Below, one piece after another: positions 1-64,000 of a stretch of 64,000 bases of DNA (positions within the stretch are counted from its first letter, which is position 1; each line of letters begins with the position of its first letter). The notes below the pieces were generated by a model. That model did no database searches, was not told the origin of the DNA, and was given only the letters and a program-made list of their open reading frames with translations. Source of the stretch: Microbotryum violaceum (taxonomy: Eukaryota). Where the stretch lies: assembly GCA_001244265.2 (NCBI GenBank), contig CDLV01000004.1, positions 1,612,001-1,676,000 of the forward strand, written 5' to 3'. Both the position numbers and the translations under genes were made by a program.

Positions 1-1858
<1,858 letters not shown>

Positions 1859-4800: not shown

Positions 4801-5030
4801 AAAGATGGTTTTCTTCTTGAAGCAAGGATGCTGCATGCGATTGGTGATGAAAATTGCCATATCTAGAGCATAGGTCCAGTAAGAGCCTGGAAGTCCGGCA
4901 TCCTTGAGCATTGCCCGCACCATAGCAAAGAGCGAACCTCCTTCCTAATCCAGCCATCCACCTGGCCTCAGCCAACCCTCAGCTGTGCGCCCACACTCCA
5001 GCCTAAGCACCCGCGCAACTAGCTTCCGCC
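1859..5030 (-). mobile_element. Degenerate Ngaro/DIRS tyrosine-recombinase retrotransposon (gag Zn finger, RT, RNase H, N-terminal part of YR)
   Basis: CRRYN..HVCSACKGEH (4393-4638); RT WKLDVLSAF, FGCR and YMDD (3248-4147); RNase H IYTDAC..E..RTD..NTLAD (2393-3103); YR-like FLAMVSLGFASCARSAKL (1884-2355); stops and frameshifts throughout. Confidence 0.85.
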
Positions 5031-5038
5031 TGCATCAA

Positions 5039-5545
5039 TCATACAACACTCCCACATGCTAAGGAAGCTAGAGACACCATACCAAGTCCATCGCAATGCT
5101 TGAGAAACTTTGCTCTGGGTAAAGCCTTGGTGAGGACGTCGGCTGTGTTGAGATCTGTCGGACAGTACTCGAGTAGAATACTGCCAACCGCAATCCTTTT
5201 GCGAACGTAGAAATGGTGGACGTTCCAATGCTTGATACAACCACAATGAGCAGGGTTGCGTGCGATAGAGATGCACGCCTTGTTGTCCTCATGGATCAAA
5301 GTAGCAGAACCTTGAGGGATGCGAAATTCCGCAGCCAATTGACGGAGCCCAATGGCCTCCTTAGCTGCAGCAGAAGCTGCGAGAGTCTCGGCCTCGGTAG
5401 TCGAAGTCGCGACGATCGATTGTTGTTTCGATTGCCAGCTGATTACAGCACCAGCAAGAATGACGGCGTAGGCTCCCACAGACTTGGCGTTTTCCCAGTC
5501 GTTGGCCCATGAGGCATCGGAGTAAACCTCAAAGGTAGTAGAGCT
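5039..5545 (-). mobile_element. Ty1/copia RNase H 3' fragment
   Basis: [41 protein letters not shown]. Confidence 0.9.
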
Positions 5546-5559
5546 GACAAGCCAAGCTA

Positions 5560-7973: not shown

Positions 7974-8271
7974 CAGTCGTGACTTTCTGTATACTCTCCC
8001 CCTTCTTTCTCTAGGCGCTCTTGCCTGGTTTTTGAGTATCTTTGCTCCCGCTCTTGGGACGTGAAGCGGCAGCAGTACTCACCACCCGTTGGAGTCCGCG
8101 TTAGGTGCTCGGCGGGTTTTGATCTGCGCAGCGCTCTTTGCGCACAGGGGTTTGACTTTCACCCAACTGCTTGCCGTCGTTGCTTTATAACATCCCTTAG
8201 CTCTTTTTGTAGCGGTCCCAGCCAACCCGAAGGATAGCAATTTATGAGCCCCAGTAAAAAAAAAAAAAAAA
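7974..8271 (+). mobile_element. 5'-truncated poly(A)-tailed retroposon (LINE 3' UTR or SINE-like)
   Basis: Ends in a poly(A) tract; highly similar to the reverse complement of 39304-39602. Confidence 0.8.
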
Positions 8272-17720: not shown

Positions 17721-18249
17721 CTTCGCACGCCATGACGTCACGCCACGTGGTTTGTCTCGTTCTAGGACGTTCTTTGTCTCGACGGCCTATTTTATTATAT
17801 AGTTTTAAGGATAGATGAACGACTGCGCCTCAGTTTGAACCGGACTCATAGAATGTCGTGGAAGGCCGCGGAACGTCGTGGAGTGAAGCCCAAAGCAGAG
17901 GGTCACGTGCCAGGCTGCTTGGATGGGAAATGGAACCTCGACGAACGTGGACAAAACGGTCTGTTGCCACGTGGTCTGTCTCCCCGTTCTCTGACGTTCT
18001 TTGACGTCGACGTGGTGGACGCCCGAAACAGTCTGCTTCGGGACAGAGAGAGTCACGTGCTATTGAATGGAACCTCGGCGAAGGTAGACGAAGCGGTGTC
18101 GCCGATGCGGAATCAGCGCTAGCTAGTTCTGGGGACGCGCTAGACGAGAGCTGTCTATGATGTCATGCCACGTGGTTTGTCTCTTGTTCCTTAGTCATTT
18201 ATATAGATGAAGTATATGAATGATAAGTTTTAAGGATAGGGGTACCTAA

Positions 18250-20336
18250 TCCCTAATATTCTCTAACAGCCATTGAACTAAAGTGATTAGCGAAAATGGC
18301 TAGTGACTTGTTCAAGCGCGAGCATCGCGAAGCGCCTTTACGAAGCGAAGGCAAACGGGCCCAAAGCCATGCCTGCTGCTGGGCCGGCTGCTCGACTCTC
18401 CTCTTTGTCCCGCTCCGATCAACAGAATCAGCTCCCGCGCACAATGACAACAACTCAACCGATCTTGGTATTGCGACCCGTATAAGCGCCGCCGTACAGC
18501 TTTGTAGAACGGACAGCGTGGTCAGCGCGAGGGCCCGATGGCCGAACCGACGCTGAGCTCGCCCCACCACCACCTCTTCCTGCGCAGAGCAAGTGCACAG
18601 GCCTCGAACCCCGCTCAAACCACTCAAGCGCCACGTTCCCATCCGCGACTACCTCGGCCCCAGATGGCCGTGTGTATCCACTACAAAGCTTGACACTGGG
18701 AGTACGAAAGGTCGAAGTCGACCGGACACTACAGCACGTGCTGTTCGCAGGGCAAGGTGCAGCTACCTCCTCTCTCCGGCCCAATCGCGAGTATTGACAG
18801 CTACTTGAAGGGTCGCATACCGGTCAGTCTCTCTGTCGAACGACATTCGTCTGTAGTAGACCCACATGCTGAACTGTGCAATCCACCTACACAGAAGCTA
18901 AGACATTCCGCGAGAATGCCCTGTCATACAACAACTTGAACGCGCTGTCGTTCACTTCGCTCGCTGCCCACTTTGACCAGACTCGACTAGGCACTCAAGG
19001 ACCCCGCACGTTTCGGATATTTCGACGCCTCTCGGCGCCCTGATTCCTGCCGTCAATCAGCGCCCAACCTTTGCCAAATCATGGCTCATCTGCCCGGCCG
19101 AGGCCACCGACACTCAACTTGGACCCAACGGCGCAGACAGTCGCATACAAAGATCTACTTTGACCAAGCTTGATTCTACGTTGCGTACCGGCAATCGCTT
19201 TGTGAGGGAATTTGCATCGGCCAAAGCTTGCGCAGGTTAGGCCGAAGAGTGGGTCCCGTGCCTCTGCCTACCAGCTGGCCGAGACCGACGCACCCACAAC
19301 CTTCCTACGTCGAGCACCGAAATGGCGATGCTTATCTGCGATTCCGACACCAACACGGGAGATCGTGGACCGCAAGACCTTATTCTCCAGGTGCACGGTG
19401 ATCGATGTCCCGATGGTCGGCCCAAGTACCAAATCGTTAGCTCGCTCCATCCGTCTGCGATGCCTCTCCGTTACCCACTACTCTTCCTCGCAGAGGAAGA
19501 TAGCTTCCACCTCAACATTCCTCTTTGCGCGTTCAATCAAATTGGGCCACTCTTTGCCCAAAGACCGCGACGAGGAGGAAGGGGACGCAGAGAATGGTGA
19601 TGGCGAACGTACGCGTCTTCGGCTCTTTCTCTGATGTTCCATTCTGCCGAAGGCGCAAGCACAGACTGACATTGAACTTTTGAACACCTAGGACGAAGGT
19701 CAAGTAAAGGGGTCGAGGTGGCGAGTCTCGCGTTCACAATTATTTGCGTACTACTTGCATAAATGCGACGAGTACTTCTCAATCCCGCATTGCACCCAAC
19801 GTGCCTTCCTGGCGTTCGTGATGACGGATACTCCCAGGTCAAGACCGATCGACTCAACTTACCTCCAGTTGGATCAAGAAAACCTCCGCCTCACCACGGG
19901 CCAAGGCATCATCAGCTTGACCCCGGATCAAGTTGGATGTTCGGTGATTTTGGGCTCAACGTTCAAGAATAGACCGCGCGAGAACACGCAGCGTTACCAA
20001 GATGCAATGGCGTGCGTCGTAAAATATGGAAAGCCTTTGCTGTTCATCACGGTGACGTCCCCAAATGGCCTGAAATCAAAGCTGCACTGGGGCCGAACGA
20101 CCAAGCAAGCAACCGACCGGAACTCATTGCACGAGCGTTTGAATCCAAGTTGAACCGACTCTGCGACGACAACATTTTTGGCAACAAGCAACGGGCAGGC
20201 TGTTTGTGAATGGAGAACTGTTTCTTTGCTGTACTTCGTAGTGTGCTTATTTAACCTCTGTTCAAATCATGTAGACTGTTCAATTGTGCTGCTATTTGAA
20301 TTGCACCCTCCCGTTAATTTAACGGGTTCCCACTGG
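18250..20336 (+). mobile_element. Internally deleted Helitron (N-terminal Rep region only)
   Basis: A|TC start; YQDAMACVVKYGKPLLFIT; 3' hairpin CCGTTAATTTAACGG then CTGG|T. Confidence 0.85.
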
Positions 20337-20366: not shown

Positions 20367-23034
20367 CCAGTGGGAACCCGTTAAATTAACGGGAGGATGA
20401 AATTCAAAGAATAGCAGGATAATTGAACAGTCTACATGATATCAGCGCAGAGGTGAAGAAAACACAATACGAAATACAGCAAAGAAACAAAATCCATCCA
20501 TCTTACATTCATTGCCGAAACAGCCTGCATGTCGCTTGTTGCCGGACTTGGCTTCAAACACTCGTGCAATGAGATCCGGACGGTTGCATGCGCTATCGGC
20601 CCCAGTGCAGCCTTGGTTTCCGGTGAGTCGGGCTCGTACGTCATCGTGATGAGCAGCGGAGGCTTTCCATGTTTGACAACGCATGCCATCGCATCCTGGT
20701 ACCGCTGCGTGATGTCGCGATTTGGTACGGGGTCAAACCGTTGATGCCTTGGGTCGTGGTGAGGCGGAGGTTTTCTTGATCCAACTGGAGGTAAGTTGAG
20801 TCGATCGGTCTTGACCTGGGAGTATCCGTCATCACGAACGCCAGGAAGGCACGTTGGGTGCAATGCGGGATTGAGAAGTACTCGTCGCATTTATGCAAGT
20901 AGTACGCAAATAATTGTGAACGCGAGACTCGCCACCTCGACCCCTTTACTTGACCATCGTCCTAGGTGTTCAAAAGTTCAATGTCAGTCTGTGCTTGCGC
21001 CTTCGGCAGAATGGAACATCAGAGAAAGAGCCGAAGACGCGTACGTTCGCCATCACCATCCTCTTCGTCCCCTTCCTCGCCGTCTTCATCCTTATTGTTG
21101 CGGTCTTCGTCCTCCTGTTTGTCTTCTTCATCTGGACCAAGGCCGGCAAGTAGCTCGCGCAATTGGACACCATTGTCGATCTGCTCTCGGTTTCTGGCGA
21201 TTGGCGGCCCGGCTTGGTGGAACCCGCAAAAAGGAATGTTGGGGTGGAAGCCATCTTCCCCTGCAGGAAATAGTAGTGGGTAACGGAGAGTCGCGGACGG
21301 ATGGAGCGAGCTAACGATTTGGTACTTGGGCCGACCATCGGGACATCGATCACCGTGCACCTGGAGAATAAGTTCTTCCGGTCCACGATCTCCCGTGTTG
21401 GTGTGGGAATCGCAGATAAGCATCGCCATTTCCGTGCTCGACGTAGGAAGGTTGTGGGTGCGTCGGTCTTGGCCTGGCGGGAGGCAGAGGCACGGGACCC
21501 ACTCTTTGGCCGTATCCCAACCTGCGCGAGGTTTGGCCGATGCGAACTCCCTCACAAAGTGATTCTTGGTACGCAACATGGACTCGAACTTGGTCAAAGT
21601 AGATCGTTGCATGTGACTGTCTGCGCCGTCGGGTTCAAGTCGAGTGTCGGTGGCCTCGGCCGGGTTGATCAGCCATGTTTGAGCAATGGCTGGGCATTGA
21701 TTCACGGCAGGGATCAGGGCGCCGAGTCGATGGTAGAGGCGACCAAACACGCAAAACACGGGGGGTCCTAGCGTGCCCACTTGAGTTTGGTCCCAGTGGG
21801 CAGCGAGCGAAGTGAATGAAAACGCGTTGTTGTACGACCGAGCGTTCTCGCGGAACGCTTTCGCTTCTGTGTGCGTGGGAAGATTGTCGTGGAAATATCG
21901 TCGCACAGTTCAGCATGTGGGCCTACTGCAGACAGACGTTGTTGGACGGAGCAACTGACCGCTAGCCGAGCCTTCAAGAAGCTGCCGATACTCGAGATTG
22001 GGCTGGGGAGGGGGAGGTAGCCGCACCTTGCCCTGCGAGCAGCACTCGCCGAAGTGTCTGGTCGACTTGGACCTTTCGCACTCCCAGTGCCGAGCCTTGC
22101 AGTGGGTGCACACGGCCGTCTGGGGGCCGAGGTCGTCGCGGATCGAAACGTGGGCTTGAGGGGTTTGAGCGCGATTCGAGCCCGGCGCACTCGCCTTTGC
22201 GGAGGAGGTGGTGGTGGGGCGAGCCCAGCGTCGAGTTGGCCATCGCGCTGACCACGCTGTCCGTTCTGCACAGCTGCACGGCGGGCTCGTATACGTGTCG
22301 CAATGCCAAGATCGGTTGCATTGTTGTCATGACGCGCGGGGGCTGATTCTGTTGATCGGAGCGGGACGAAGAGGAGGGTCGAGCCGCGGGGCGCCCAGCA
22401 GCGAGCGCTCGAGCAGGCCCATGGTAGCCCATGGTACGGCGCTACCCTCGCGCCCAAGACTTGGCGAGGTTGCGATGGCCCTCCCTGAGTCCCTGGCGAC
22501 CTTGGGACCGGGACATAGCAGCGAGGGTTTGTTCTTAAATGAGTGTCACTAAAATTGGATGAGAGTGAGAGGGAGAAAGGAAAGGTTCTTACGTGGTTTG
22601 ATTTGTTGTTCAGCCCCTAATACCGCTGGTCGACTGCCGGAATGACACTGACACCGCCGGCGCACCGCATCACGTGACAAACGCCAGCCCTCGCCTCGCG
22701 CGTCAGGCAGAGCTCTGCTGTAGAAGCAATATCATGCAAAGCCACGCGCTTGCGGTTCATTAAATGCAATATGAGTGGAAGCATTGGTTTATGTGAGCGA
22801 AAAAAAGAAGGAAAATACTGGGAGCGCTGTAGCTTCGTTGGAACGGCGCGGAAACTACAAAAGTCACCACAGCGCTTGTACATGACTTCTGATCGGAACA
22901 TGGACACCACAGGCAGGTGCGGCAGACACAACAGTATGCTGGTACATCCACCACAGGCGGCCCTCCAGGCTGCAACCTAGTTAAAAACAGCGATTTTAGG
23001 TACATTCCTTAACTTACCTTTTTTTATATAGAGA
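20367..23034 (-). mobile_element. Internally deleted Helitron, tail-to-tail with the previous copy
   Basis: CTHCKARHW..ECCSQGKVRLP; FRENARSYNNAFSFTS; LRYPLLFPAGEDGFH; same 3' hairpin and CTGG|T; 5' end TCTCTATATAAAA near 23034. Confidence 0.88.
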
Positions 23035-38756: not shown

Positions 38757-39303
38757 CCAGCCTGAGCGAGCTGGAGCGCGGCCTGGATACTGGGACATGA
38801 GGCACCATGAGTGTCAATTCACCGGTTAGGCGATCACCGTCCCGAATTTTCCGTGAGCGTGTGTAGCTGTCTAGCTTGTATGTTGTGTTAATGGAGATCC
38901 TGCTCTGCAATCATGATTCACCCCGAGGTAAAACGCACTCCGAAGGCGGAAATTCTAGTTCAATCTTAAACCTTAGGGCAGGGCGTAGATACACTACAAC
39001 AGAGTCCTGCGCCTTCGGAAACGAGGAAGCGGCGACGACATGCTTCATCAGTTCTAGGACACTCTTAACAAGCACTGTACAACCGGCGTAGCGGTATGTA
39101 GCCCCCGGAGGTACACATGACCGGTGCCCTCTCCAGCTGTATACTCCCGGGGTTCCACGGCTCAGGCGCGGTCCGTCGCCGACTGCACTACAACAAACTT
39201 CCACGCACCCGTTCAGAGCTCAGGATGTGTCTGCAGTTACTGAATGGAACACCCTCCTGCGACGAAACCGACAAAATATTCGTTTGCTACATCCGACTTG
39301 CAC

Positions 39304-40295
39304 TTTTTTTTTTTTTTTTGACTGGGGCTCATAAATTGCAATCCTTCGGGTTGGCTGGGACCGCTACAAAAAGAGCTAAAGGAGGTTATAAAGCAACGAC
39401 AGCAAGCAGTTGGGTGAAAGTCAAACCCCTGCGCGCAAACAGCGCTGCGCAGATCAAAGCCCGCCGAGCACCTAACGCGGACTCCAACGGGCGGTGAGTA
39501 CTGCTGCCGCTTCACGTCCCAAGAGCGGGAGCAAAGATACTCGAAAACCAGGCAAGAGCGCCTAGAGAAAGAAGGGGGAGAGTATACAGAAAGTCACGAC
39601 TGGGGATACGGAGAACCAGGAATACTAAGACAGAGAGGAGGGGAACACACCCGAGGGGCCAAGGGAGGGGGTCGAAGCCGGAGGTAGAGGTCCCCAGGGA
39701 CTAACAGGCCGCAGCCAAGCCCCAGCTACTCGTCACCCCGACAGCGCCTGATGTCCTCCCTTGGCTGAATCTCGAGTGCTGGCTGTTGAGCCGTCGGGGC
39801 CGAGAGAAAAGCGATCCAGTACAACGAAACGAGCCTCGCCTTGACGCGAGGATATTGACCAGAAACGAGCGACCTTCCTTCCCGAGCCATGCCGTAGATC
39901 TTGACCAACGCGAACGAACGAACCATTCAACGGAATCCAACACACGGCTTAGGAGTAAAAGGAGAAGTGGCTGAAGCGTAGTCAACAACCGAGCAACAGG
40001 AACGAGAAGAGGAAGGGAAGGGAAAAAGGGGGGAAAGGAGAGGGAAAAACTTCACAAAGCCTCCAACGCAAAGACAATCGACCTGGCTTGCCGATCCATC
40101 CAAGAACAAAAAACCGCTACTGCGCAAAGTAGAGAGAGAGAGGGAGAGGTGCGCAGCCTTCCACTGCGCAACAAGTTCCAAGACAGTCAGCTTCTAAAAG
40201 AGGAGTCGACCTCCGAAAAAGAAGGGAGGAAAGTTCTGAAAAGCCCGCAAGGCCAATGCACTTCTCCAGCTGAATCTCCGTTCGAACCACCGAGC
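39304..40295 (-). mobile_element. About 1-kb poly(A)-tailed retroposon inside the KDZ element
   Basis: Poly(T) tract at 39304-39319; 3' 300 bp match 7974-8271; no clear ORF. Confidence 0.7.
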
Positions 40296-40365
40296 AGTAG
40301 CTCAGCGGTCAGAGCAACTCTGATTAATAGAGTGGACCTGAGTTCAATTCTCAGTTCAGCCAAAC
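40296..40365 (+). ncRNA. 5'-truncated copy of the tRNA-like sequence
   Basis: Identical to the reverse complement of 56433-56502. Confidence 0.75.
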
Positions 40366-40395
40366 TTTCTTTTGTTTTCCAATTGACATGTTATT

Positions 40396-40657
40396 GTACT
40401 CCCGGGGCTACGCAAGGCGCAAGCGGAAAGCGCCCGTGTACTCCCGGGGGTACACAAGGCGCAAGCGGGGCCCCCGGGAGTACGCAGGCGCTTTCCCGCT
40501 TGCGCCTTGTGTACCCCCGGGAGTGATCACACCCTGCGCGCCGAATGACTGTGTACCCCCGGGAGTACACAGCTTTGTCGGCGGCACAGGCCGGGTCCCC
40601 CGGGGTTACACTCTTGTCGCGCGCCGACTCTGTGTATGTGTACCCCCGGGAGTACAC
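40396..40657. repeat. Array of about 7 palindromic GTGTACCCCCGGGRGTACAC motifs with a larger inverted repeat
   Basis: Direct reading; related copies at 37287-37306 and 39097-39157. Confidence 0.85.
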
Positions 40658-41182
40658 AGCCCCTACAATGTCCTTGGCCGATGAACCAATATCCCTGCTC
40701 ACTCGACTACATAAACTATCACGTCAACGGAGTAGGTATGCGGTGACGTATTTCATTGATTTTTGCTGACATATTATCGCAAGCACTGTACAACGGAGCC
40801 CCGTTGGACGCGTCTGGACCCAGTTCGGGGTGCTGTTGGAACAGAACAACTACAGCAACACCAATCCTCACCGCCCCCGCCCCCCTCTGGCAATGTTCCC
40901 CAACCTGAACCTGCAAATGTCAGCACCGATGCGCACCAATTCTTAGTTTTCAACTTAGCAGAACCTTCAAGCTTGTCACGTACTGCAGTTCGGTGAGTGT
41001 GGCTGTAGCGACCGGCTCGTGGGATCATGGTCGTCAATGCGTCAACGCCTCATTGAGGCTGACATCCATTTACTTTTGTGCACTAGCGTCCACAATCCAC
41101 CATGTGCGATATGGGCAGCATACAAAAAGCAAAGTCCTTCAATAACAAATAATCTAAAGTCAACAAATGCGCCAAACCATCC

Positions 41183-44100
41183 CTAGCTAGCCCATGGGCT
41201 CGTCGAGAATCTCGAGGTCGTCCGAGTCTTCAACGCTTGTCGAGCCCGACTCTCCGTCGCCCTCCCGAGCTCAGCATCATCTTCTTCCTCGACCTCCTGC
41301 TCCGATAGTGAACCCAAAACTTCTTCCATTCGTCTTTCATACACGTCATCACGGTCTCGCTCGGCATGCTCCGCGGCTGGATCGGGGGTCAGGCCAAGTT
41401 CCCTTCGGAATGCGTCGAGGTCGCTGGTTGTGTGGCGCACGTCCACGGCAGAAGGACCTGATGAGCGGCGGCTCGACTCAGTGACGAGGCTCTGTATTTG
41501 AGTATTATTCAGCGTCGAAAGGCGGCGACCGAAATGACGTGGACTACCGCGCGACCGGCGCAACACCTGTTTCGCCCGTCCGGCAAAAACTCCTCCGATC
41601 AAACCGAATGCAGTGGGCCGCGATTCATGAACTGCGGGTGAACGCGTTCTAAACCAGACAACCGAGAGATCATCGCGTTCGGCGAGCCGATCCAGACGCT
41701 CTTTGAACGAAATCTGCCGGCGTTGAAGCACATGCCACACCGCAGTGCCAACCTCGCCCGCGCCATCAGTTCCGAGAAGTTTCTTAGCCGCTTCGAGCGT
41801 TTCTTCGGGAACTAATAGAAGGGGCGACGTAAGGTACAGCACCAACACAAAGAAAGGGTGTGTCCATCTCACCTCGGTCCTCTGCCCATGCCTGAGATAC
41901 CCTAACAAAGGGGGTGTCCTCATCTTCGAGCCACGCAAGTAGCTGTCGAACCTCAGCTCCGATTCGGAGAATCTCTTCTTCCGCCCTGGCTTTGAGTAAA
42001 ACCGCCTTGATCCCTTTCTGAACATCGGTATCAATCGCCCAAGGCGCAGTGTCGTGTACGAAAAAACCGTCTTGCTAGAAAGCGTCCGTTGGCGACAGAG
42101 TCACAAGCGACTTAATTGTGGTAGCGAGCGGTAAGTTGTCCAGAATCTGGGCCGATTGCTCGGTCGCAGCATTTCGGTAATCCCCGACCGCTTTATTGTA
42201 CATATCGATTGCCACCTTTACTTTCTTGCTGTGCGTCTGTGAGACGCTGACAAGCTTGCTGGCTTCCACTTGACCGATTGTCGCGCCGCTTCGTCCCCGA
42301 CCCATTGAGTCAATTCGTTCTTGACAGCATTGCAATTGGACCGTCGCTTTGTGTAATGCGCGAAGTTTGACTACGCAGTTGCACAAATGCTGGAGATCTA
42401 GGTATGTCATGGGACATCAAACATCAGGTGGCGATACTCATAAAGATAGGACGCGCGCCGCACCTAAAGCTGCAAGCTCCTTCGTGCGATCGTATTCTTG
42501 TTGGTAAGCTCTTAGCTGTTGCTGCAAGCGAGCCTTCGCTTCATCGGAAGCCATTGGATCGAATCTGAACACACAATGCCAAGACACAGTGTCAATTTTA
42601 CGCCCTCGTCCTCCAACGGGGTTTAACGCGCCGAACGTACAGCCTTTCTTCCACGTGGTGTAGCCTCTGTACAATGTTGAAAAGCTCTAATCGCTCCTTG
42701 TCCTCGTTCTCCCGACATTGACCCGCCGTTGTGGCCGCTTGAGCAGCTCGTTGTAAATCCCATTGCGCGAGAAGGTCAGACTCGGACCATATTGCCGAAA
42801 TGTCACTCAGATCAGTTTGTGCCCTTCCAAGCTGATCTTGAGCATTCGACAGTCGTCTGCGGAGCCAACGGCCTAGAATGGACGATGAATGAAGGGACCG
42901 CACGATTAAGTGACGAACACGGCGTGAAAGTGTGGATGGCAGAGCCTACCGAGGCTGTCAACACCGTTCTTGTTCATCAGGTCGATGCGACGCGAGATGT
43001 TGACGCGCCGGTGAGAAGCGCTCGCAGGACGATTGATCGGGATTAGCGATCGGAGCTGACTCCAAACGCGTTCGCATCCCTCCCCATCCGTCAACCCGAA
43101 GTGCTGAATCAGGCGCGGGTTGTACTCAAGCTGGCAGGGCCATTGATGAGCAAAAGCATGAAACACGCTCGTGGCAAACTTCAATCTCGGAAACAGATCG
43201 GGAAGGATACTTCTCTGCAGGCGATCGAAGTACAGTACAGGTCAGCGGCGCCCCAGGGCCAGAAATCTAAGAAACGACGGATCCGCCACTCTTGCTGACC
43301 GATTGCATGTAGCCGTCCAAATTACACGCAACATCATACAGCACTCCAAGTGTATCGTCGGACGGGAGTTGGTTCGAAATATGTTGCAGCAGCGATAAGC
43401 CGTAGTAGCGCCTGCCTCATCAAAAACGAGCGTCAGACCCTGTAAGCGGGTGAGAGGAACTGAGCTGACGAACTTTTCACCTGATTGATACAAGTTGACC
43501 ATCTTCAACGCGATATCGTGACGGCAGACACAGGCAACTAGGCCCGTATCGGACTTGCCCCGCGAGATTTGTGTCGCACCGCCGTTGGCCGCTTTCCATG
43601 AATCAGCACAAGCCTTCAAGACGCAAGAGGAAAGGCGTCAGCGCGTTGAAAGGATCGCAGGGGGCGGCTCGGATCAGCGGACCTTTTCTGACTTCTTGCT
43701 GTCGCCACCATCACAGATCTCCTTCATCGATTCGAGCTCATCTTCGCCGAGGAAGAGGGCTGGCGTCGACTCCTGAGGATCGTATTTGGCTGAGGTGTCG
43801 CGAGAATGTTGGAAGTTGCCTTCCAGAGCGACAAGATGCTGCACTTCGACTCTATGGTGGGCTTGGTTTAGACGCGTCGATCCGTAGCATGCTGGACACT
43901 TATCCGAGAGAGAACCCGCGACACCGAGGACGAGGTCGCCCAATTCTCGCTCGGATGTCGTGAGAGCCCGAAATTCGTCAAGGGCGCGCTGGAGTTGCTT
44001 TCGCAGCTCCTTGTCCTGCGCGAACGATGATAAATATCAGATAATGATCAATAGCAATCATGACAGGGGGTCGAGCTCACGAATTTATGCTGACTCAGGC

Positions 44101-45250
44101 CCGGCCGACTCCATCCAGTTTGGTCATAGAAATGTCGAGCCCGCGAGCTGCTCCATCGACAGGAAACGGCGCAGTGCTCCACCAGGAGTCGAAAAATTGG
44201 AGAAGTCGAAGGGTGAATGCAGAGCGAGGAGCAGCTGCGGTCGATCCGATTAATCCTATCTGAGCAAGGCGCTCGGCGTACGTAAGGCATGGGCTATCGC
44301 TGCTGGATCTCCGACAGAAAGCGATCGGCACCTCGACCACTACTGCATTGATTCAACCATTCGACCTTGTCAGCGCAACGTTCGACAGAGCGACCCAATT
44401 CGCCTGATTCACATACAGCTTATGAGGTCGTACACGTCAAGCCGTAAAGTGAGGGAACTCTTGCATGAACAAGGCGGCGGCACTTCGCTAGCGACCGAAC
44501 CCTGGCACAGCTCCTCGTTCACGTCAATCAAGGGCCGTAGATGACCTTTGACCCCAGCGCAAAACGCGATGTACTGGCGCAGAAGCGCTGGCGGTTCCAA
44601 GCGCCTAAGGCGAGCGTCGTTGAACACGAATTGCTTGTACGTTTCTTGCTTCGACTGACCACGTGTGGCTGATTCGAAACTTTCGACTTGGCGCAGGTCA
44701 GCCAGTGATAATCGCTCGGCGATTGCACTATAGTCAGGCGCGATTGGTATATGGGATGTTCGATCCGGAGAGTATGGGGCTGGATCGAAGTCGTGCTCGA
44801 AGCCACCACCGTACTCGCTGTAACGCTCTTCATCCCAATCCATCCCACTCGAGTTGGCGGCGTCACTCGCGGCTTCGTCGGAATCGGCCTGAATGGGAAG
44901 GGCCATTGGACGCTGAGGAGACGGCGAGCTAGCTTCGCCAAAATCATCGAAGGTTCCTTGCTGGATTTGGCGGGCAGTGTAAGTAACACGGTGCCGGGTT
45001 CCGGGGATGTTGGTGCGGAGTCGGGCGTCCGATCGGAGGCCTTGAGGCCTATAGGAAGGATGCTCCTCAAAGTAGTCCAGACGGACCTTGAAAGGTCTCC
45101 ATCGATGCCTGCCATCGTCGATGTGAATTGCGAAGCTTCGAGATTTAGGAAGGGTGTCTCGATAGTTGATGCTCTGGTTAGAACTGAGGCGGGTCTCACT
45201 TGGCGCTGAGCGGAAGCTAAAAGAGACAGGTCTGCGGGCATACTAGTCAC
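41183..45250 (-). pseudogene. CxC1-type KDZ transposase, multi-exon, with a premature stop
   Basis: CPACYG; LEGNF; DTGLVACVCRHD; SGEK; LYDVAC; VFHAFAHQWPCQ; GLTDGEGCERVWS; PWAIDTDVQKGI..RAEEE; in-frame TAG at 42075-42077. Confidence 0.9.
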
Positions 45251-45484
45251 TAAATGCTCAATCTCATTAGCAAGTTAATCTTGGCCTCGGGCCTCGAGCA
45301 ACCCGGGTTGCAGGGGGGGCAACCTGTATGGGTACGCCGCTTAAGAGTGGCGCTGGGAGGGGCGCCGCGCGCACCACTTTTTGGTGTGCTTAGAAATATA
45401 GCCAGAGGTGCAAAAAACCTCGTGCGCGCACGCGCGATAAGGCAGCTTTTCTGTTTTTTGGCCCGGGGGGAGCTTGGTAGACCG

Positions 45485-45847: not shown

Positions 45848-47158
45848 TTTTTTTTTTATCTAATAGATTTCATTAACAGCATATCTATATTAATGCCTAA
45901 AAATCCTCGGAAAAGACGGAGGGAATGCAGTTAAGCACACTGGCGAGGCCAGTAGTGTGGGACTCGTTGACCTTGGAACAAAATCAACCATACCCACTAA
46001 AACCCCCTTAGGCGGTTACAGCGAAACCAGTCGTCCCTTGGACTCCTGGATGGACGCGCGGAGCTCCTCAAATGCCGTTTCGGCGATCGGCTCCAGAGGA
46101 TCCGACGAAAATCGACGGCGACGAGAGAGCTTCCAGATCGCGTGGAAGAAGAGTAGACGCAGCTCGACGGGTCGGCGTTCCGAGCGAGAAACGACCGGGC
46201 ACACGAACTGAACAAAGTCGGGGTGTGGGATAGGAGTGAGCGCAGACCAGAGGCGGCGGGCAAACGGGCAACCGACCGCAAGGTGTGCCAGGGTCTCCGG
46301 AGCCTCCGACAGGCACATGACACATGCGGTAGATCGATTGTGGAGAGAACGGCTATTCGGAGAAGCGATTTGGCTACCTGGATGAAGTGAACCTAGGGAG
46401 AGGAGGTGGGCCGTGTCTTCGGCGTCCGAATGAACCCTGCGAATCTTGCGTAGCGCCTTCCACCAGGCATTCCAGCGTTGCTCGGGGAGACAGAAAACCC
46501 TCTGATGACCGAGAGGGAGGATAGGAGGGTAGAGGAAGGCTTGGTGGCGTTTGGACGCGTTCCCAAACGAAGACGGAGTCATCACCTCGCCATCGGGTCC
46601 TCGGAAAAGCGTCGGGTTCACCGAGAGTCGGATTCCGTGGCCTGCTGGGAAGTAGAGGACGTGTGTTGCCCACCGCTCCAGATTCGGGCTCTTGGAAAGT
46701 TCGGGGGGTTCAGCGTTGTCACCAAATCCCAGGCTTCGAAAAAGCGGATCCATCGTGGAGGGAGCAGGGCCTTCGTCTTCCTCACTGCGCGTTCCCACTG
46801 TGGAGGAGGGTGGCAAAAGTAGGCCCACCAGATCCAGACCCACGAGCGACGATGTGGGTTGGGGCCTGATTTGGGCAAGGTAAAGGGGGTGCGTTCGTTC
46901 GCCGCCTGAAGGCGAGTGCGGATGTCGAAGAGGTGCCGAATGAAGCAGCCGTCCGGGTCCCGAAGATGAAAGACCCACTTGGCGTGATCGACCGCGAGGC
47001 GCCGAGGTAAGTCAATCAAGCCAAAGCCGCCGTGGTCGAGAGGGGTGCAGAGGCGCAGCCGAGAGACCTTCGGGGTTTCTGAGATCCGTCCGAGGCTCGA
47101 CCGTGGATAGCGATCATGACCGCGTCCTCGATCTCCTTGACGACGCTCTTGGAAGCTT
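45848..47158 (-). mobile_element. 5'-truncated LINE, same family as 61068-64000
   Basis: Poly(T); near-identical to 61068-62380; CVMC..ETLAHLAVGC zinc knuckle. Confidence 0.93.
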
Positions 47159-51056: not shown

Positions 51057-53874
<2,818 letters not shown>

Positions 53875-56432
53875 TTAGTAAAGGGTCAGCGGTCCAGAGG
53901 GACTTGTGGCATTGGGAAGTTGGCGCGCGCGTGGCGCGGCGCCGGATGGAGGCAGATGGCGGTGTGGCGTATTGATTGGACTCAGAGGTGGCTTGCACGC
54001 GGATACTATCCAAGGCTCTGGTCTCGTTCACTCTCTCCTTCTTCTTTAACACACACTTGATATCTATCTCGCCCATTCGCCTGCTACAAGTTGATTGACC
54101 TTGGCGATACTCTATCTCACAATAGGTCATCTATCAACGCCGTGTAGCTACAGCGAATCTTCATTCATTCATTGGTACTCCAAGTCCAAATCCACAACAG
54201 GTTATGAGTTCGACGACTACCACCAATGTATCGAATGAAGGGGACGTCAAGATCACCAAGCTCGGTAAAGATAACTACGAGCTGTGGTCGATCCGAGTCG
54301 ACGCGTTCCTCGAAGGTCGTGGCTACAGCAGTGTACTTCAACACGGAGCCGACCGACCATCGAGTATGGATGTGCAAGCATGGAAGACTCTCCATGGCAT
54401 CGACCCAAGTCTAGAGGAGGGCAAGGTCCCGACTCTAATCACCAAGTGGGATCGTAGTGCGCGCGCAATCGTCATCTCGTGCCTCGACGATTCGAATCTC
54501 AAGATGGTCAAGAGCAAGTCGCTCTCAGCCAGAAACATCTGGGAGAAGTTGAAACAACACCACGAAGGGAACGCCGATCCGTTCAAGATTCGCACGCTAC
54601 TCTACGAGATTTCGAATGCGTCGTACGATGAGGACACCAACCTTGGTGAGTTTCTCCAGGGCATCACGGACAAGGTCGATCAACTCGAAGATCTCGGCCA
54701 AAAGTTCAAGGATGAAGCCATCATCGCGTTTATGCTTCAAGCTCTACCTCCCTCATACGAGATGCTCAAGCAAGCTATAAAGCTCAGCGATAAGTGCTCG
54801 GTTGACTACGCCGTCAATTGACTTACCGACGAGTACAGTGAACGCAAGCTCACTGGCAAGTACGACAAATTACTCAAGAACGCGGGAGCGTTAGCGGTTC
54901 GCGAAGGCACACAAGTCAAGCGTGATCCGAACTGCATTTGTCGTGGTTGCAAGGGAACCGGTCATTACCAAATCGATCCGGAATGTCCCAAGTACGATCC
55001 GAACGCCAAACGCGGTCGTAACAAGAACCACAGCAACAAGAAGAAGAAGCAACATAAGCATTCCAAGGGATCTGCGGATTCGGAGGAGTCGGCTTCTTTT
55101 GCGTTGGTGGTCAAGTCTCTCGAGGAGAGCCATTCGCTTCACATCAACGTCGCAAATAGGGTGTCACAGAACGACCAGAGTGAGATCTGGATCCTGGACA
55201 CCGGTGCGAGTCAGCACTACGTCGGCAACGCAAGTCTGCTTACCAACCGTCAACATGGAAGTCTGAACGTTCAAACCGCAAGCGGTCAGGTAGTACATTG
55301 CGACACGTATGGTACGGTACGGTTCAAGTTGAGAAGCGGGGCCTCGCTCTCACTTTCGAACGTCTACCATCTCCCGGGCGCTCCGGTGAACCTCGTCTCG
55401 ACTCGTGCTTTATACCGATCAGGAGCTAGTTGCGGATGAGAAGATGGCAGGGATGTCATGACGATCAAGATCAAAGGGCTTACCGTAGCAAAGACGCTGA
55501 ACGGTACCGGTTACACCCTCGACTTTACGCGCATTGTCGAGGACCAAGCTCATGTTGCAACTCGTGCGACAGTGGGAGCGCCTTTGATGGAATGGCATTG
55601 TCGCTACGGCCACATCGCCGTGAGCTCACTCAAGGAGCTCGTCAAGTCAGGCGCTGTAGATGGACTAGTTCTCACCGACGAGAAGGTCCACGACTGCGAG
55701 CCCTGCATCAGTTCCAAGTCTCGCGTATCGAAGTTCTCCGAGTCGGTTACTCATGTCACCGACGTCCTTCAACGCGTATTCATGGACATCGGATTCGTCG
55801 CAGAAGATCAAGTCAATTTTCAAGGTCGAAAGGCGTACCTGGCTATTGTAGACCAGTACTCGACTGCGAAGTGGACATTTCCGTTGAAGACCAAGTCGGC
55901 CAAAGAAGTCACTCGCGTATGGATCGCATTTCAACAAGGTGTCAAGAAGATGACTGGTCGCAAAATCAAGCGCGTTTGCACGGACAGTACCCAGCAGCTA
56001 CAAAGAAGCGATGAATAATGTCGAAGCAGACAAGTGGAAGGAAGCTATCCAGGACGAACTCAATGCGATGGATTGTCATCAAGTCCTTGCAGACGCGGAT
56101 CTTCCCCACGGTGCTCGCGCTCTCGGGTTGAAGTGGGTTTTCGCTCGTAAGGAGAACGCTCAAGGAGAAGTCATTCGTTACAAGGCTCGATTGGTCGCAC
56201 AAGGTTTTGCACAGCAATCTGGCATTGACTACAATGAGACTTTCGCTCCTGTTGCTCGCTCTATGACGATTCTCTTTCTCATCGCCATCACTGCATCCCA
56301 AGGACTGTGCCTCAAACAATTCGATTACGACTCAGCGTTTCTGAACGGAACGATGACGGATATGGTCTACATGAAGTATCCCAAGGGTTGGGATCGTCCT
56401 CAGCTTGGCCAAGTCCTTCGTCTTGTCAAATC

Positions 56433-56856
56433 GTTTGGCTGAACTGAGAATTGAACTCAGGTCCACTCTATTAATCAGAGTTGCTCTGACCGCTGAGCTA
56501 CTCAACCAGTGGGAATAGATGAATATGACGGCGCACCCGAGTTACACCGGCGGTGGTTCTACCACACATTGGGAGCCATGGCGGGCGGACTGGTGCACGG
56601 TCACATTGACTGAAGCCTGGCGATGCGCACCAACCGTTGTCTTCTCTCCACGGTTGGATTACACGCTTGTCAGGTACGTACATCTAGCACTACGGCTACT
56701 ATCATATGCAATTAACTGACGGTTGGATTACACGCTCGTCAGTCTCTTATGGATTAGCAGGAAGGCGGCTTTCGGTTATTTGATTAGAAGCGCGGGTTTC
56801 TAATCAAATAACCGAAAGCCGCCTTCCTGCTAATCCTCATTCACAACACGCCAACT
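56433..56856. mobile_element. 424-bp structured insertion in the copia RT
   Basis: Splits [16 protein letters not shown] duplicated at 56428-56432 and 56857-56861. Confidence 0.88.
56436..56507 (-). tRNA. 72-nt tRNA-like cloverleaf with nominal anticodon TTA and non-canonical G32/A33; probably a pseudo-tRNA
   Basis: GGTTGAG TA GCTC AGCGGTCA GAGC A ACTCT GATTAAT AGAGT GGAC CTGAG TTCAATT CTCAG TTCAGCC A; all four stems pair. Confidence 0.7.
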
Positions 56857-58339
56857 AAATCAATGTATGGAACGAAGCAAGCTCCTCGAGAATGGAACTC
56901 GGCAGTCAACAAACTCATGGTCGCTTGTGGTTACTCGCGATCTGACGCCAATTCATGTCTTTATGTCAAGCGTGTCGAGGAGATGTTCATCTACATTACT
57001 CTTTACGTCGATGATGGACTCGCTGCCTCGAACGATCAGACGTTTCTGGATTCGGAGATCCAAGCTTTCAACAAGGTGTACCAACTCAAGCAACTTGGTC
57101 CTGTGAAGGTGTTTCTCGGTCTCGAATTCCTGCGCTCGTCCAAGTTCATCTTCGTGCACCAGTCCAAGTACATCAGGAGCCTTGTCGCTACGTATGGCGG
57201 AGATCACGGATCGAAGCACCCAGCGAAGGTCCCGATGGAGCCCAGGTTGAACATGGAACACTCGGCGGAGCTGTTCGACGACATTGCACTCTACCAGTCA
57301 GCAGTGGGAGCTTTGCAGTATGCTGCGCATCGTGCTCGTCCCGACATCGTCACTTCGGTTTGTGCAGCAGCTTCCAAGGTTTCAGCTCCTACCCAGGCCA
57401 ACTGGATCGCGGTGAAGAGGATCATCCGCTACTTGCAAGGTACCATGGACTGGGGACTCAAGTACAACCTCGAGGGTTCGACTGTGTTCGAACTCTACTC
57501 AGATGCCTCGTGGGGAGACGACATGTTGACTGGCAAGTCGATAGGAGCGTTCGTCTCGATCATGGCAGGCGCAGCAATTTCTTGGCAGACAAAGGAGGCC
57601 ATGTGGCTTCGACGCCTGGCTGCGGATCTCAAGATTCAACAGCCTGGATCTACACTTCTCTGGGAGGACAATCAGGCGGTGATTGTGATCGCACAGAACC
57701 CAGCTCATCATGGTAGGACGAAGCACTACAGTGTGCATCACATCTACATTTGCGAGCGAGTTACGACTGGCGACATTCAAATCAAGTATTGCAAGACAGG
57801 AGCCATGACTGCGGATCTTCTCACCAAGCCGCTCGCTCGCAACTTGTTCAAACTTCATCGTGATGGATTGGGGATGGTATCCCTTGGAGCCTTGACCAGT
57901 GGGAGTGTTGTGGGAAATTAGTAAAGGGTCAGCGGTTCAGAGGGACTTGTGGCATTGGGAAGTTGGCGCGCGCGTGGCGCGGCGCCGGATGGAGGCAGAT
58001 GGCGGTGTGGCGTATTGATTGGACTCAGAGGTGGCTTGCACGCGGATACTATCTAAGGCTCTGGTCTCGTTCACTCTCTCCTTCTTCTTTAACACACACT
58101 CGATATCTATCTCGCCCATTTGCCTGCTACAAGTTGATTGACCTTGGCGATACTCTATCTCACAATAGGTTAGTTGTAGTACATTTAAACACACACTTGA
58201 TATCTATCTTGCCCATTTGCCTGCTACAAGTTGATTGACCTTGGCGATACTCTATCTCACAATAGGTCATCTATCAACGCCGTGTAGCTACAGCGAATCT
58301 TCATTCATTCATTGGTACTCCAAGCCCAAATCCACAACA

Positions 58340-61067: not shown

Positions 61068-64000
61068 TTTTTTTTTTTTTTTATCTAATAGATTTCATTA
61101 ACAGCATATCTATATTAATGCCTAAAAATCCTCGGAAAAGACGGAGGGAATGCAGTTAAGCACACTGGCGAGGCCAGTAGTGTGGGACTCGTTGACCTTG
61201 GAACAAAATCAACCATACCCACTAAAACCCCCTTAGGCGGTTACAGCGAAACCAGTCGTCCCTTGGACTCCTGGATGGACGCGCGGAGCTCCTCAAATGC
61301 CGTTTCGGCGATCGGCTCCAGAGGATCCGACGAAAATCGACGGCGACGAGAGAGCTTCCAGATCGCGTGGAAGAAGAGTAGACGCAGCTCGACGGGTCGG
61401 CGTTCCGAGCGAGAAACGACCGGGCACACGAACTGAACAAAGTCGGGGTGTGGGATAGGAGTGAGCGCAGACCAGAGGCGGCGGGCAAACGGGCAACCGA
61501 CCGCAAGGTGTGCCAGGGTCTCCGGAGCCTCCGACAGGCACATGACACATGCGGTAGATCGATTGTGGAGAGAACGGCTATTCGGAGAAGCGATTTGGCT
61601 ACCTGGATGAAGTGAACCTAGGGAGAGGAGGTGGGCCGTGTCTTCGGCGTCCGAATGAACCCTGCGAATCTTGCGTAGCGCCTTCCACCAGGCATTCCAG
61701 CGTTGCTCGGGAGACAGAAAACCCTCTGATGACCGAGAGGGAGGATAGGAGGGTAGAGGAAGGCTTGGTGGCGTTTGGACGCGTTCACAAACGAAGACGG
61801 AGTCATCACCTCGCCATCGGGTCCTCGGAAAAGCGTCGGGTTCACCGAGAGTCGGATTCCGTGGCCTGCTGGGAAGTAGAGGACGTGTGTTGCCCACCGC
61901 TCCAGATTCGGGCTCTTGGAAAGTTCGGGGGGTTCAGCGTTGTCACCAAATCCCAGGCTTCGAAAAAGCGGATCCATCGTGGAGGGAGCAGGGCCTTCGT
62001 CTTCCTCACTGCGCGTTCCCACTGTGGAGGAGGGTGGCAAAAGTAGGCCCACCAGATCCAGACCCACGAGCGACGATGTGGGTTGGGGCCTGATTTGGGC
62101 AAGGTAAAGGGGTGCGTTCGTTCGCCGCCTGAAGGCGAGTGCGGATGTCGAAGAGGTGCCGAATGAAGCAGCCGTCCGGGTCCCGAAGATGAAAGACCCA
62201 CTTGGCGTGATCGACCGCGAGGCGCCGAGGTAAGTCAATCAAGCCAAAGCCGCCGTGGTCGAGAGGGGTGCAGAGGCGCAGCCGAGAGACCTTCGGGGTT
62301 TCTGAGATCCGTCCGAGGCTCGACCGTGGATAGCGATCATGACCGCGTCCTCGATCTCCTTGACGACGCTCTTGGAAGCTGGGATGAAACGATTATGGTA
62401 GAGAATCTTCGTGTAGCAGTAGATATTGATTATCGAACATTTCGCTGCGTACGGAAGGTCGTACATTGGGATGGATCGTATCCGGGCGACGGTCGCGGAC
62501 TTGACCTCCTCCCAGCCCGCATCCTCGGCGATGTCCACCCCAACCTGCACTCCCAGGTAACGAAACTGCGAGTCGCTGAGACGCCAGGACCCGAGGTGTG
62601 AAGGGATCGGACGGTCCCTGAATGACCCGAGGGGGTAGAGGAAAGATTTGGCGTTGCTGAGCTTGCTGGCACTTGCCCGCTCGTACAGCTCGATCGCCCG
62701 ATTGAGGTGGTCGAGGTCCGAGGTGTCGTGGAGAGCACAGCAGGCATCGTCGGCAAAGAGAAGTTCTCGTATGGTTGGGAGTCCCGGGCTCGCGATGCCC
62801 TTGACTTGTGACCGCAACTGTACGGCGAAGCCCTCAATTGCGAGAACGAAGAGCGACGGAGCCAGCGGGTCGCCTTGTCGAACTCCCGAGAGGATATCGA
62901 ACGCGGCCGAGAGCCATCCGTTGAGGTAGATTGAGGCGGATTGGTTTGTATAGGTCGCTCGGTACCATTGGCAGGCTTTCGGGCCAAGGCCAACGGCGCT
63001 GAGGACTGCATCGATGTAGGTGTGGGAAAGACGGTCGTAAGCCTTCTCGAAGTCCATCACTGCGAGCAGACCGGACACCGGCTCTGAACCCGGGAGCCCA
63101 GGATCCATGAGACACTGCACCTCGGCGATGTTCGTGCCAATCCAGCGGTTCGGAATGAAACCGCGCTGGGTCGAGCCGATCAGGGTCTCGAGCAGAGGGG
63201 CAAGGCGCTGGTTGTGGGCTTGGGAGATGATGCGTTCATCAGCGTTGATGAGTGATATGGGGCGTTTGTTCACCAGCCGATCCCTCTCGCCGCGCTTGTG
63301 GATGAGGTGGATGTGGGCAGTGTGGCGGGCCGACGTTCGAGAACTGGCGTCGTCGGTGGGGATCGAGTTGATGACGTCGCGGAGGATGGGGCCTGTGGCT
63401 GTCCACGTTGCGCGGTAAAACTCGACCGGGAGACCGTCGGGTCCAGGCGAGGAGTTCGACTTACACGCCTCTTGTGCCTTTGTTATCTCCTCTAGGGGGT
63501 ACGCTCCTTCGAGCTTGTCCGAATCGGCAGGGGATAGGCGAGTCGAGGCGAGACCGTCGATAATCTTCTCCAAGGCGTCGTCATCGATAGCGCGATCCTC
63601 GTAGACCCCTTCGAAGTACTTGCTAGCGGCTCCAAGCATCGAGTCGGGGTCGGAGTGGACGACATTGTCGACCGAGAGGGAAGGGATGAGGTCGGATGCG
63701 CGCACTTTGCGTAGGCGGATGAAGATGGAAGATGGGCCCGCGAGGGAAGGATCAATGCGGGACCGCAGCGCCGCGCCGTAGCGCGAGTGATCTGCCTTCG
63801 CCTCCTCCGATCCTCCACGTCGGAAGCGGGCAAGTGTGCGAGCCAGAGCCTGAAGCTCGGGCAGCAAGTGTTGTTTGGTGGACGTCCAAGCTGCTGATGG
63901 GTCGTCGGGCGTCTGGAGGAGGGCTTCATTGTAGAGGGCCTGGACAGTGGAAGTGAGGTATTCGCAGGTCGCGTCGCCCTCGATCACGTGCAAACCCAAC
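61068..64000 (-). mobile_element. L1/Tx1-like LINE: ORF2 RT, zinc knuckle and poly(A); runs off the window end
   Basis: SPGPDGLP; RPISLIN; DFEKAYD; GVRQGDPLAP; LFADD; RYLGV; frameshifts in the 3' part. Confidence 0.96.

Follow-up and report, generated by a model that had tools for sequence, protein, structure and literature searches.

The DNA analysed here, referred to throughout as the window, is a 64,000-nt stretch of Microbotryum violaceum contig CDLV01000004.1 (assembly GCA_001244265.2, positions 1,612,001 to 1,676,000, forward strand), in which a Ty1/copia retrotransposon is interrupted by a 424-bp unit that carries a tRNA-derived cloverleaf at one end. Direct reading places the inserted unit at exactly 56433–56856, bounded by two copies of the pentamer AAATC (56428–56432 and 56857–56861), which form a 5-bp target-site duplication (TSD). 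The letters at the junctions (...cgtcttgtcAAATC / gtttggctgaac ... cacgccaact / AAATCaatgtatgg, slashes marking the borders of the insert) interrupt a single reading frame, and the match to the Pfam domain RVT_2 is split at one profile position, with positions 7–117 of the profile found in the open reading frame (ORF) ending at 56432 and positions 118–230 in the ORF starting at 56857. ORFs upstream of the insert contain the copia gag and Pol_BBD domains. As delimited by these domain matches and by comparison of its long terminal repeats (LTRs), the host Ty1/copia extends over 53864–58339 on the plus strand. Its LTRs, at about 53864–54199 and 57907–58339, begin with TGTTGTGGG and end with CCACAACA, and pieces of them are 98.1% and 97.4% identical; the host is a fairly young element. 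Since one reading frame, and with it RVT_2, is interrupted, the arrangement is a clean insertion and not a chance one. The host Ty1/copia is inactivated by the insert, which breaks the reading frame of RVT_2. The 3′ LTR of the host also contains a tandem duplication with a period of 97 bp (58088–58170 and 58185–58267, 96% identical), which is not present in the 5′ LTR.

Empty sites were searched for by comparing the contigs of four public runs (X1, X2, X6 and X15) with the 1,024-bp stretch 56133–57156. In two of the four runs, X2 and X6, contigs join 56427 to 56857, skipping 429 bases and leaving five ambiguous letters at the joint; such contigs represent an uninterrupted copia in which AAATC occurs once. 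A third run, X15, holds a diverged copia copy, likewise without the insert. The copia/insert junctions are spanned by no contig piece among the matches listed for the four runs, and no paralogous copia in the 64-kb window is close enough at the DNA level to provide an empty site there. A first-pass annotation of this DNA had described a clean insertion with a 5-bp duplication, and the flanking AAATC copies, the split RVT_2 match and the empty sites bear this description out.

Structure of the inserted unit

The left edge of the unit is formed by a tRNA-derived cloverleaf of 72–74 nt with the anticodon TTA (56435–56508, minus strand), which was recognized by both ARAGORN and Rfam. ARAGORN reports it as tRNA-Stop(tta), the sole gene called in the whole window, and the Rfam tRNA model (RF00005) matches it over model positions 1–71 with 49.9 bits, the gathering score being 29 (E-value 2.2e-9). 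Because of its location on the minus strand, the cloverleaf stands at the 3′ end of the insert when read in the tRNA sense, where it makes up the last 75 nt, followed by AAC (56435–56433) and then by the duplicated target. A comparison by eye with the motifs given in PMC10886601 indicates that a box A-like TAGCT...CGG and a box B-like AGTTC are retained in the cloverleaf, the latter matching the GGTTC motif of that paper at four of five positions.

The cloverleaf is complete, and its anticodon loop reads GAUUAAU, that is, G32-A33-U-U-A-A37-U38. Working tRNAs have a pyrimidine at position 32, and U33 is nearly universal among them. Judged by the loop expected of a functional tRNA (a canonical 7-nt loop with U33 and a purine at 37), the cloverleaf does not qualify. 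If a mobile element had brought in a functional ochre-suppressor tRNA gene, this would account for the complete cloverleaf, the anticodon TTA, the box A- and box B-like motifs, and a T-rich tract that lies downstream in other copies of the module. However, positions 32 and 33 are occupied by G and A in place of the pyrimidine and the U, the copia-borne copy lacks the T-rich tract, and the predicted suppressor tRNAs of rust fungi, as presented in passages of PMC10886601, all come from LTRs of Helenus elements and were judged non-functional. We give virtually no credence to a working suppressor at this locus. The tRNA-like module is a relic of a tRNA borne by a transposable element (TE), with an anticodon loop ruined by G32 and A33, and not a suppressor; the first-pass annotation had argued in the same direction from A33, to which G32 is now added.

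Next to the tRNA-like part, and reaching to a breakpoint at 56611, lies a module (56509–56610) that is contiguous with it in other genomes, as seen in contig records covering 56433–56553 (X1, record 2), 56433–56611 (X15, record 10) and 56470–56611 (X6, record 24). The following module (56611–56750) contains a 24-nt direct repeat (56650–56673 and 56719–56742, 23 of 24 positions identical) and a small palindrome, and is inverted in other copies: contigs in three of the four runs join 56611 to 56791 on opposite strands, and loose ends occur at 56611 and 56750. In these variants the segment from 56611 is thus joined in opposite orientation to the right arm of the hairpin described below, so that the left arm is missing there.

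The hairpin (56751–56836) is perfect, with 39-nt arms (56751–56789 and 56798–56836, 100% complementary) and an 8-nt loop, and is evident in the repeat analysis, the folds and the variant joints. Folding of the two strands in comparison with shuffled sequences gave z-scores of −10 and −12, mainly due to this hairpin. Matches to Rfam microRNA families over 56744–56843 are all far below the gathering score and reflect the long hairpin only. The unit closes with 20 nt (56837–56856) that end in ...CACAACACGCCAACT by direct reading, and loose ends behind 56856 were found in three of the four runs.

The termini of the insert have only an inverted pentamer in common (TTGGC/GCCAA), 2 nt inside each end, and neither end carries an A-run. 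The GC content is 0.50 for the insert and 0.46 for its tRNA part, compared with 0.55 for the window. Several features already listed in the first-pass annotation are recovered in this analysis, namely a 72-nt cloverleaf at one end of the insert (now assigned to the minus strand) with the loop GATTAAT, hairpins and a repeated sequence (the 39-nt-arm hairpin and the 24-nt direct repeat), and the combination of weak terminal similarity with the absence of poly(A).

Copies and flanks of the repeat family

Sampled words of the 424-bp unit are shared by 20 of the 24 public runs listed, which come from nine studies and organisms A–G; six of the runs hold at least half of the words, and none holds more than 0.59 of them. 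Among the four runs used for the empty-site search, the family contigs break or branch at 56433/56435, about 56503–56510, 56611, 56750, 56791 and 56856. In run X2, 93 contigs fall on the 1,024-bp stretch, and the summed word depth over the insert is 239–7,070, which is a rough sign of repetition only and does not equal copy number; two long contigs that carry pieces of the unit (7,007 and 12,576 nt) have a depth of about 61 each. The repeat family of which the insert is a member is modular, occurs in many copies and is present in several related organisms. Exact-pattern scans of metagenome contigs, using a 30-mer of the tRNA part and the 24-nt direct repeat with one degenerate letter, returned no match.

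These data bear on the origin from a mitochondrion or plasmid that had been considered in the first-pass annotation, where the TTCAATT T-loop was described as organelle-like. A nuclear insertion of mitochondrial DNA (NUMT), or a piece of mitochondrial plasmid, would have brought an organellar tRNA into the nucleus, and the only points in its favour are that view of the T-loop and the aberrant anticodon loop. Against it, the GC contents of the insert and of its tRNA part are near that of the window, the copies of the family are numerous and show many alternative junctions in short contigs, and pieces of the unit lie within the two long contigs of nuclear depth. In addition, the general tRNA model fits the cloverleaf at 49.9 bits, while the two mitochondrial modes of ARAGORN call no gene there, so that the T-loop is not distinctively organellar either. 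For a NUMT, a clean 5-bp TSD would be unexpected, as such insertions occur by end joining; for a plasmid, PLSDB (RefSeq/GenBank plasmid records) gave no match, which is a weak test because fungal organelle plasmids are unlikely to be found in it. We consider an organellar source extremely unlikely, and this part of the first-pass annotation is not retained.

A second copy of the tRNA-like module is present in the window at 40296–40365 (plus strand), identical at 70 of 70 positions to insert positions 1–70 and matching the Rfam tRNA model with 31.6 bits (model positions 6–65). This copy lacks the 5′ acceptor strand, its upstream sequence is unrelated to the insert, and it continues downstream as TTTCTTTTGTTTTCCAATTG. 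Its tRNA-like end is adjoined by a polypurine tract (PPT), CAATTGGAAAACAAAAGAAA, at 40366–40385 on the minus strand, which was read directly in the window and recurs in the four flank consensuses listed for other genomes; on the tRNA-sense strand, the tract is a T-rich trailer that resembles a terminator of RNA polymerase III (Pol III). No TSD was found around the second copy, and the 64-kb window contains no other full copy of the 424-bp unit. The second copy is also adjoined by clustered short palindromes sharing the core TGTACCCCCGGGAGTACACA (40395–40670, and also 39104–39161), which includes 30-nt perfect inverted arms; these may be subterminal repeats of a DNA transposon.

In other genomes the unit is preceded by the same kind of tract. 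The sequence ...GGARAACAAARGAAR stands just before 56433/56435 in all four listed consensuses (eight contigs from X1, X6 and X15), and when the second copy (minus strand) is included, a purine tract adjoins the 56433 end in five of five flanks. The flanks after 56856, available from three of the four runs (X1, X6 and X15), are mutually related and poorly conserved, with X6 and X15 agreeing at about 20 of 30 positions, and the continuations at 56750 differ among contigs (agreement 0.5–0.7). The right flank in X6 closes with the 9-mer TATAAGCCC, at a distance of 21 nt from the unit; this 9-mer occurs once in the window, inside the primer-binding site (PBS) of a young copia element, and was matched in 9 of 100 shuffles. 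When flank motifs from the other genomes were scanned in the window, only the purine tract of the second copy was found. Mobility had been tied in the first-pass annotation to the existence of further copies with the same ends, an expectation borne out only in part: contigs do break at both 56433 and 56856, but the flanks at these positions are related and not random.

The flanks also bear on a cut-and-paste origin, in which the unit would be a DNA transposon resembling a miniature inverted-repeat transposable element (MITE), with the ends GTTTGGC/GCCAACT and a transposase that makes 5-bp duplications. The unit is small and non-coding, has a very strong internal hairpin and carries an inverted pentamer near both ends, and a KDZ (Kyakuja-Dileera-Zisupton) transposase shows that the window does contain DNA transposons. 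However, its terminal inverted repeats are only 5 nt long and offset by 2 nt, compared with the 10 nt or so, or more, at the exact ends that would be looked for in a MITE, the flanks of the other copies are conserved, and a purine tract lies beside one end in all five flanks. To our knowledge, no fungal DNA-transposon superfamily has 5-bp TSDs together with such ends, and we regard a MITE-like element as very unlikely. Helitrons, which have no TSD and different ends, and DIRS or Ngaro elements, which make no TSD, were rejected.

Assignment to an element class

We propose, with about even confidence, that a Microbotryum LTR-retrotransposon family with a tRNA-derived module gave rise to the insert, which would be a solo LTR or else a complete terminal-repeat unit. 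This assignment leads because of the 5-bp duplication, the polypurine tract that adjoins other copies, and the fact that LTRs bearing a tRNA are known from Helenus elements (PMC10886601). A 5-bp TSD is the signature of the local copia integrase: it was also made by the young copia of the window (12681–17721, minus strand), which has 100% identical 335-bp LTRs (12681–13015 and 17387–17721) and a perfect CTTCG duplication. With the copia and gypsy solo LTRs of the window, the unit shares the TSD length, a size of a few hundred base pairs and short inverted termini, here TTGGC/GCCAA. The absence of an A-tail was also counted in favour of a solo LTR, as was the lack of resemblance to those retroposons of the window that end in poly(A). 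The mutually related right flanks fit an internal leader rather than random targets, and the 9-mer in the X6 flank is a small further hint.

If the unit is a solo LTR, it would be oriented on the plus strand, an orientation suggested by the polypurine tract that precedes the same end in other copies, and the decayed tRNA gene would sit at the outer (U3) edge of the LTR. In full elements of the family, the tract GGARAACAAARGAAR, observed in the flanks, would act as the PPT, preceding the unit and ending exactly at the insert start, where priming of the plus strand at the PPT/U3 boundary would place the end of the tract. The tRNA-like module would be antisense to the element, and its T-rich trailer would be the complement of the polypurine tract. 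Complementary DNA of such an element would have been integrated into the reverse-transcriptase region of the host copia by an LTR-retrotransposon integrase, the duplication being observed and the enzyme presumed, and later recombination between the LTRs would have left a single one. The family evolves through module shuffling, as seen in the inverted segment, the duplicated hairpin arm and the occurrence of the tRNA module in another context.

Two related routes were considered and set aside. A read-through copy of the primer tRNA (plus- or minus-strand strong-stop DNA) would put the tRNA 3′ end by U5 and not on the PPT/U3 side, and no complementarity of the kind used in a self-priming (Tf1-like) primer site was seen by eye.

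A number of observations weigh against the solo-LTR assignment. No pair of units with a PBS and a PPT occurs in the 64-kb window, the contig pieces from the runs being too short for one, and the second copy in the window consists of the tRNA module only, with the rest of the 424-bp unit missing. Conservation of the left flank extends over only about 19 nt, beyond which three flanks are unrelated, and the three right flanks (30 nt) have no common block of at least 10 nt directly after 56856. The PBS-like 9-mer is present in only one of the three right flanks and stands at a distance from the unit, and if it were a PBS, the LTR should reach beyond the insert. The termini of the unit are GT...CT and not TG...CA, and the copia and gypsy LTRs of the window, which carry no tRNA-like module, start with TG after a G-rich PPT, whereas the tract here is A-rich. 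As to the 3′ terminus, the LTRs of the young copia have the termini TG...TA (ending in ...CATCATA), with a directly adjoining primer site, GGTTATAAGCCC, and a G-rich PPT, so that a CA end is not obligatory for an integrated LTR in this genome. The purine tract could equally be a Pol III terminator belonging to the tRNA-like gene, and if the plus orientation is taken from the tract, the tRNA-like part is antisense and has no role as a Pol III promoter. In the opposite orientation, a T-run directly follows the tRNA-like part, and nothing complementary to a tRNA follows the unit.

The closest described parallel is Helenus (TRIMp3), a group of miniature terminal-repeat retrotransposons (TRIMs) whose LTR contains a sequence derived from a tRNA (Kojima 2024, PMC10886601). 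According to passages of that paper, Helenus is hosted by rust fungi and a few Agaricomycetes, with 113 fungal families; fungal Helenus elements have TSDs of 5 bp, many solo LTRs flanked by such TSDs occur, and copia elements are the likely helpers. The tRNA-like parts are called suppressor tRNAs by tRNA finders, and these passages report that no Helenus was found in Microbotryum. The inserted unit resembles Helenus in having a tRNA-derived cloverleaf with motifs similar to box A and box B (TRGCY...YGG and GGTTC in PMC10886601) within the repeat unit, in the 5-bp TSD (AAATC) flanking a solo unit, and in the calling of a relic as a suppressor by a tRNA finder. Its host is likewise a basidiomycete, of the Pucciniomycotina, and the host genome is rich in copia elements using primer sites of the anticodon-loop type. 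In contrast to Helenus, the tRNA-like part lies at the edge of the unit and, judged by the orientation of the purine tract, in antisense. Hence it cannot supply the element with a Pol III promoter, the idea by which TRIMp3 is defined. The termini are GT...CT, no adjacent primer-binding site was seen after the unit, and its length of 424 bp exceeds the maximum of 323 bp given for Helenus LTRs in the available passages of PMC10886601, which also counts against an LTR of this type. In view of these misfits (the GT...CT ends, the A-rich tract, the PBS, the length and the antisense tRNA), the solo-LTR assignment is given about an even chance, and the unit is not filed as a Helenus element.

Cassandra, a plant TRIM that bears a 5S rRNA sequence (PMC10886601), offers a second parallel, as a small-RNA gene has been captured in the LTR of a non-autonomous LTR retrotransposon. 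It differs in that, in the same source passages, its gene is a 5S gene in sense orientation that is used as promoter and terminator, and in that its host is a plant.

Read in the tRNA sense, the unit could instead be a retroposon whose RNA was transcribed from the minus strand and ran from AGTTGGCG... to the tRNA-like 3′ end. Such a retroposon would be a SINE-like element (short interspersed nuclear element) terminated by a 3′ tRNA, or it would have arisen by retrocopying from a chimeric RNA. Either tRNA-type processing or the T-run downstream in the source loci would define its 3′ end, and its cDNA would be inserted by the machinery of a long interspersed nuclear element (LINE) or by an integrase of copia type that accepted a foreign cDNA. 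This corresponds to the main idea of the first-pass annotation. In its favour, the unit stops 3 nt past the discriminator, the T-rich sequence TTTCTTTTGTTTTCC directly follows in source-like copies, the second copy, made up of the 3′ 70 nt and the tract, resembles a 5′-truncated copy, and the box A- and box B-like motifs are kept. Recent retroposition is also shown by two poly(A) retroposon copies in the window that are 99.8% identical. However, the tRNA part is at the 3′ end and does not form a 5′ head, so that an internal Pol III promoter could yield only a tRNA-like RNA of about 75 nt. A tail, whether A-rich or LINE-like, is missing from the unit, which also shows no resemblance to the LINE-like 3′ ends of the window; the flanks of the other copies are conserved at both ends and not random, and around the second copy no TSD was found. 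Moreover, the 5-bp TSD has the same length as that of the local copia, and the inverted end pentamers have no role in such a retroposon.

The comparison with SINE2 elements is of the same kind. The unit is a short non-coding repeat with a tRNA-derived module keeping Pol III boxes, but SINEs have a tRNA-derived 5′ head and a LINE-related or A-rich tail, whereas the insert has a 3′-terminal tRNA and no tail. One TSD-bearing copy, the insert itself, was seen, and the flanks of the other copies are mutually related. We regard a retroposon in the tRNA sense as possible but doubtful.

An intermediate arrangement may also be envisaged, in which an LTR family built its PPT/U3 boundary from an antisense tRNA gene and its terminator, with the tract serving as both terminator and plus-strand primer. 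It remains an outside possibility that the family represents a new kind of retroposon, with an RNA ending in a tRNA-like structure, a 3′ end that tRNA-type processing would create just ahead of a Pol III T-run, and insertion by a copia integrase that would account for the 5-bp TSD, or this milder LTR version at the PPT/U3 boundary. The first-pass annotation had stated that the insert does not fit the standard SINE, MITE or LTR layout; this holds for the SINE and MITE layouts, but is too strong for the LTR layout in view of the TSD, the polypurine tract and the known tRNA-bearing LTRs.

Other repeats in the window and significance of the family

Apart from the elements discussed above, the window contains several repeats that are of interest in their own right. 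A 1,310-bp direct repeat (45848–47157 and 61073–62380, 99.8% identical) starts with a T-run on the plus strand, corresponding to poly(A) on the minus strand, and contains an ORF with a weak zf-RVT match (22.9 bits, which is under the cut-off); in appearance it is a 5′-truncated LINE-like retroposon that was active recently. Another poly(A)-tailed repeat, of about 298 bp (7974–8271, plus strand, and 39305–39602, minus strand; 96.6% identical, with a common start base), could be a short retroposon, in a genus for which the published census counts no SINEs; no TSD was found for the copy at 39305–39602, which lies beside the second tRNA-like copy. Fragments of the KDZ transposase occur at 42906–43637 (minus strand), and long ORFs without a known family lie on the same strand over 41183–45274; together these probably represent one decayed DNA transposon. 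The 3′ part of a gypsy element (51650–53494, minus strand), with an integrase zinc finger and core domain, is located directly upstream of the host copia, and its PPT, ...CCCGGGGG, is followed by an LTR beginning TGATGTC. A 1.2-kb inverted repeat (18375–19548 and 21206–22402) is 82% identical.

An importin-beta fragment encoded in the window shares 97–98% identity with proteins that their sources assign to Microbotryum, while other Microbotryomycetes, the next relatives, reach about 82%. For M. lychnidis-dioicae, Table 2 of PMC4469406 and the accompanying passages give a genome of 25.2 Mb with 55.4% GC, many copia elements, 392 LINE, 0 SINE and 1,942 'unknown' TE copies. The content of the window (the KDZ transposase, the gypsy integrase and the second copia) fits this published picture. 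In the available literature, supplementary TE libraries apart, no account of a SINE, TRIM or Helenus element in Microbotryum was found and none of the insert family, and the family is undescribed in the passages of PMC4469406 and PMC10502011 that were searched.

The insert marks a recent transposition, as it is nested in a copia element with 97–98% identical LTRs and is missing from the copia copies of three runs. If it is confirmed to be a tRNA-bearing LTR, small-RNA-gene capture of the Helenus and Cassandra type would be extended to Microbotryum, with a terminal and antisense layout. The false 'suppressor tRNA' call is explained by the relic, and tRNA finders will flag the insert family in anther-smut genomes. 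Speculatively, nearby chromatin or the targeting of integration might be influenced by a Pol III unit placed at an LTR edge. The family is probably part of the large 'unknown' TE fraction of anther-smut genomes, in which TE dynamics are studied in connection with the degeneration of mating-type chromosomes.

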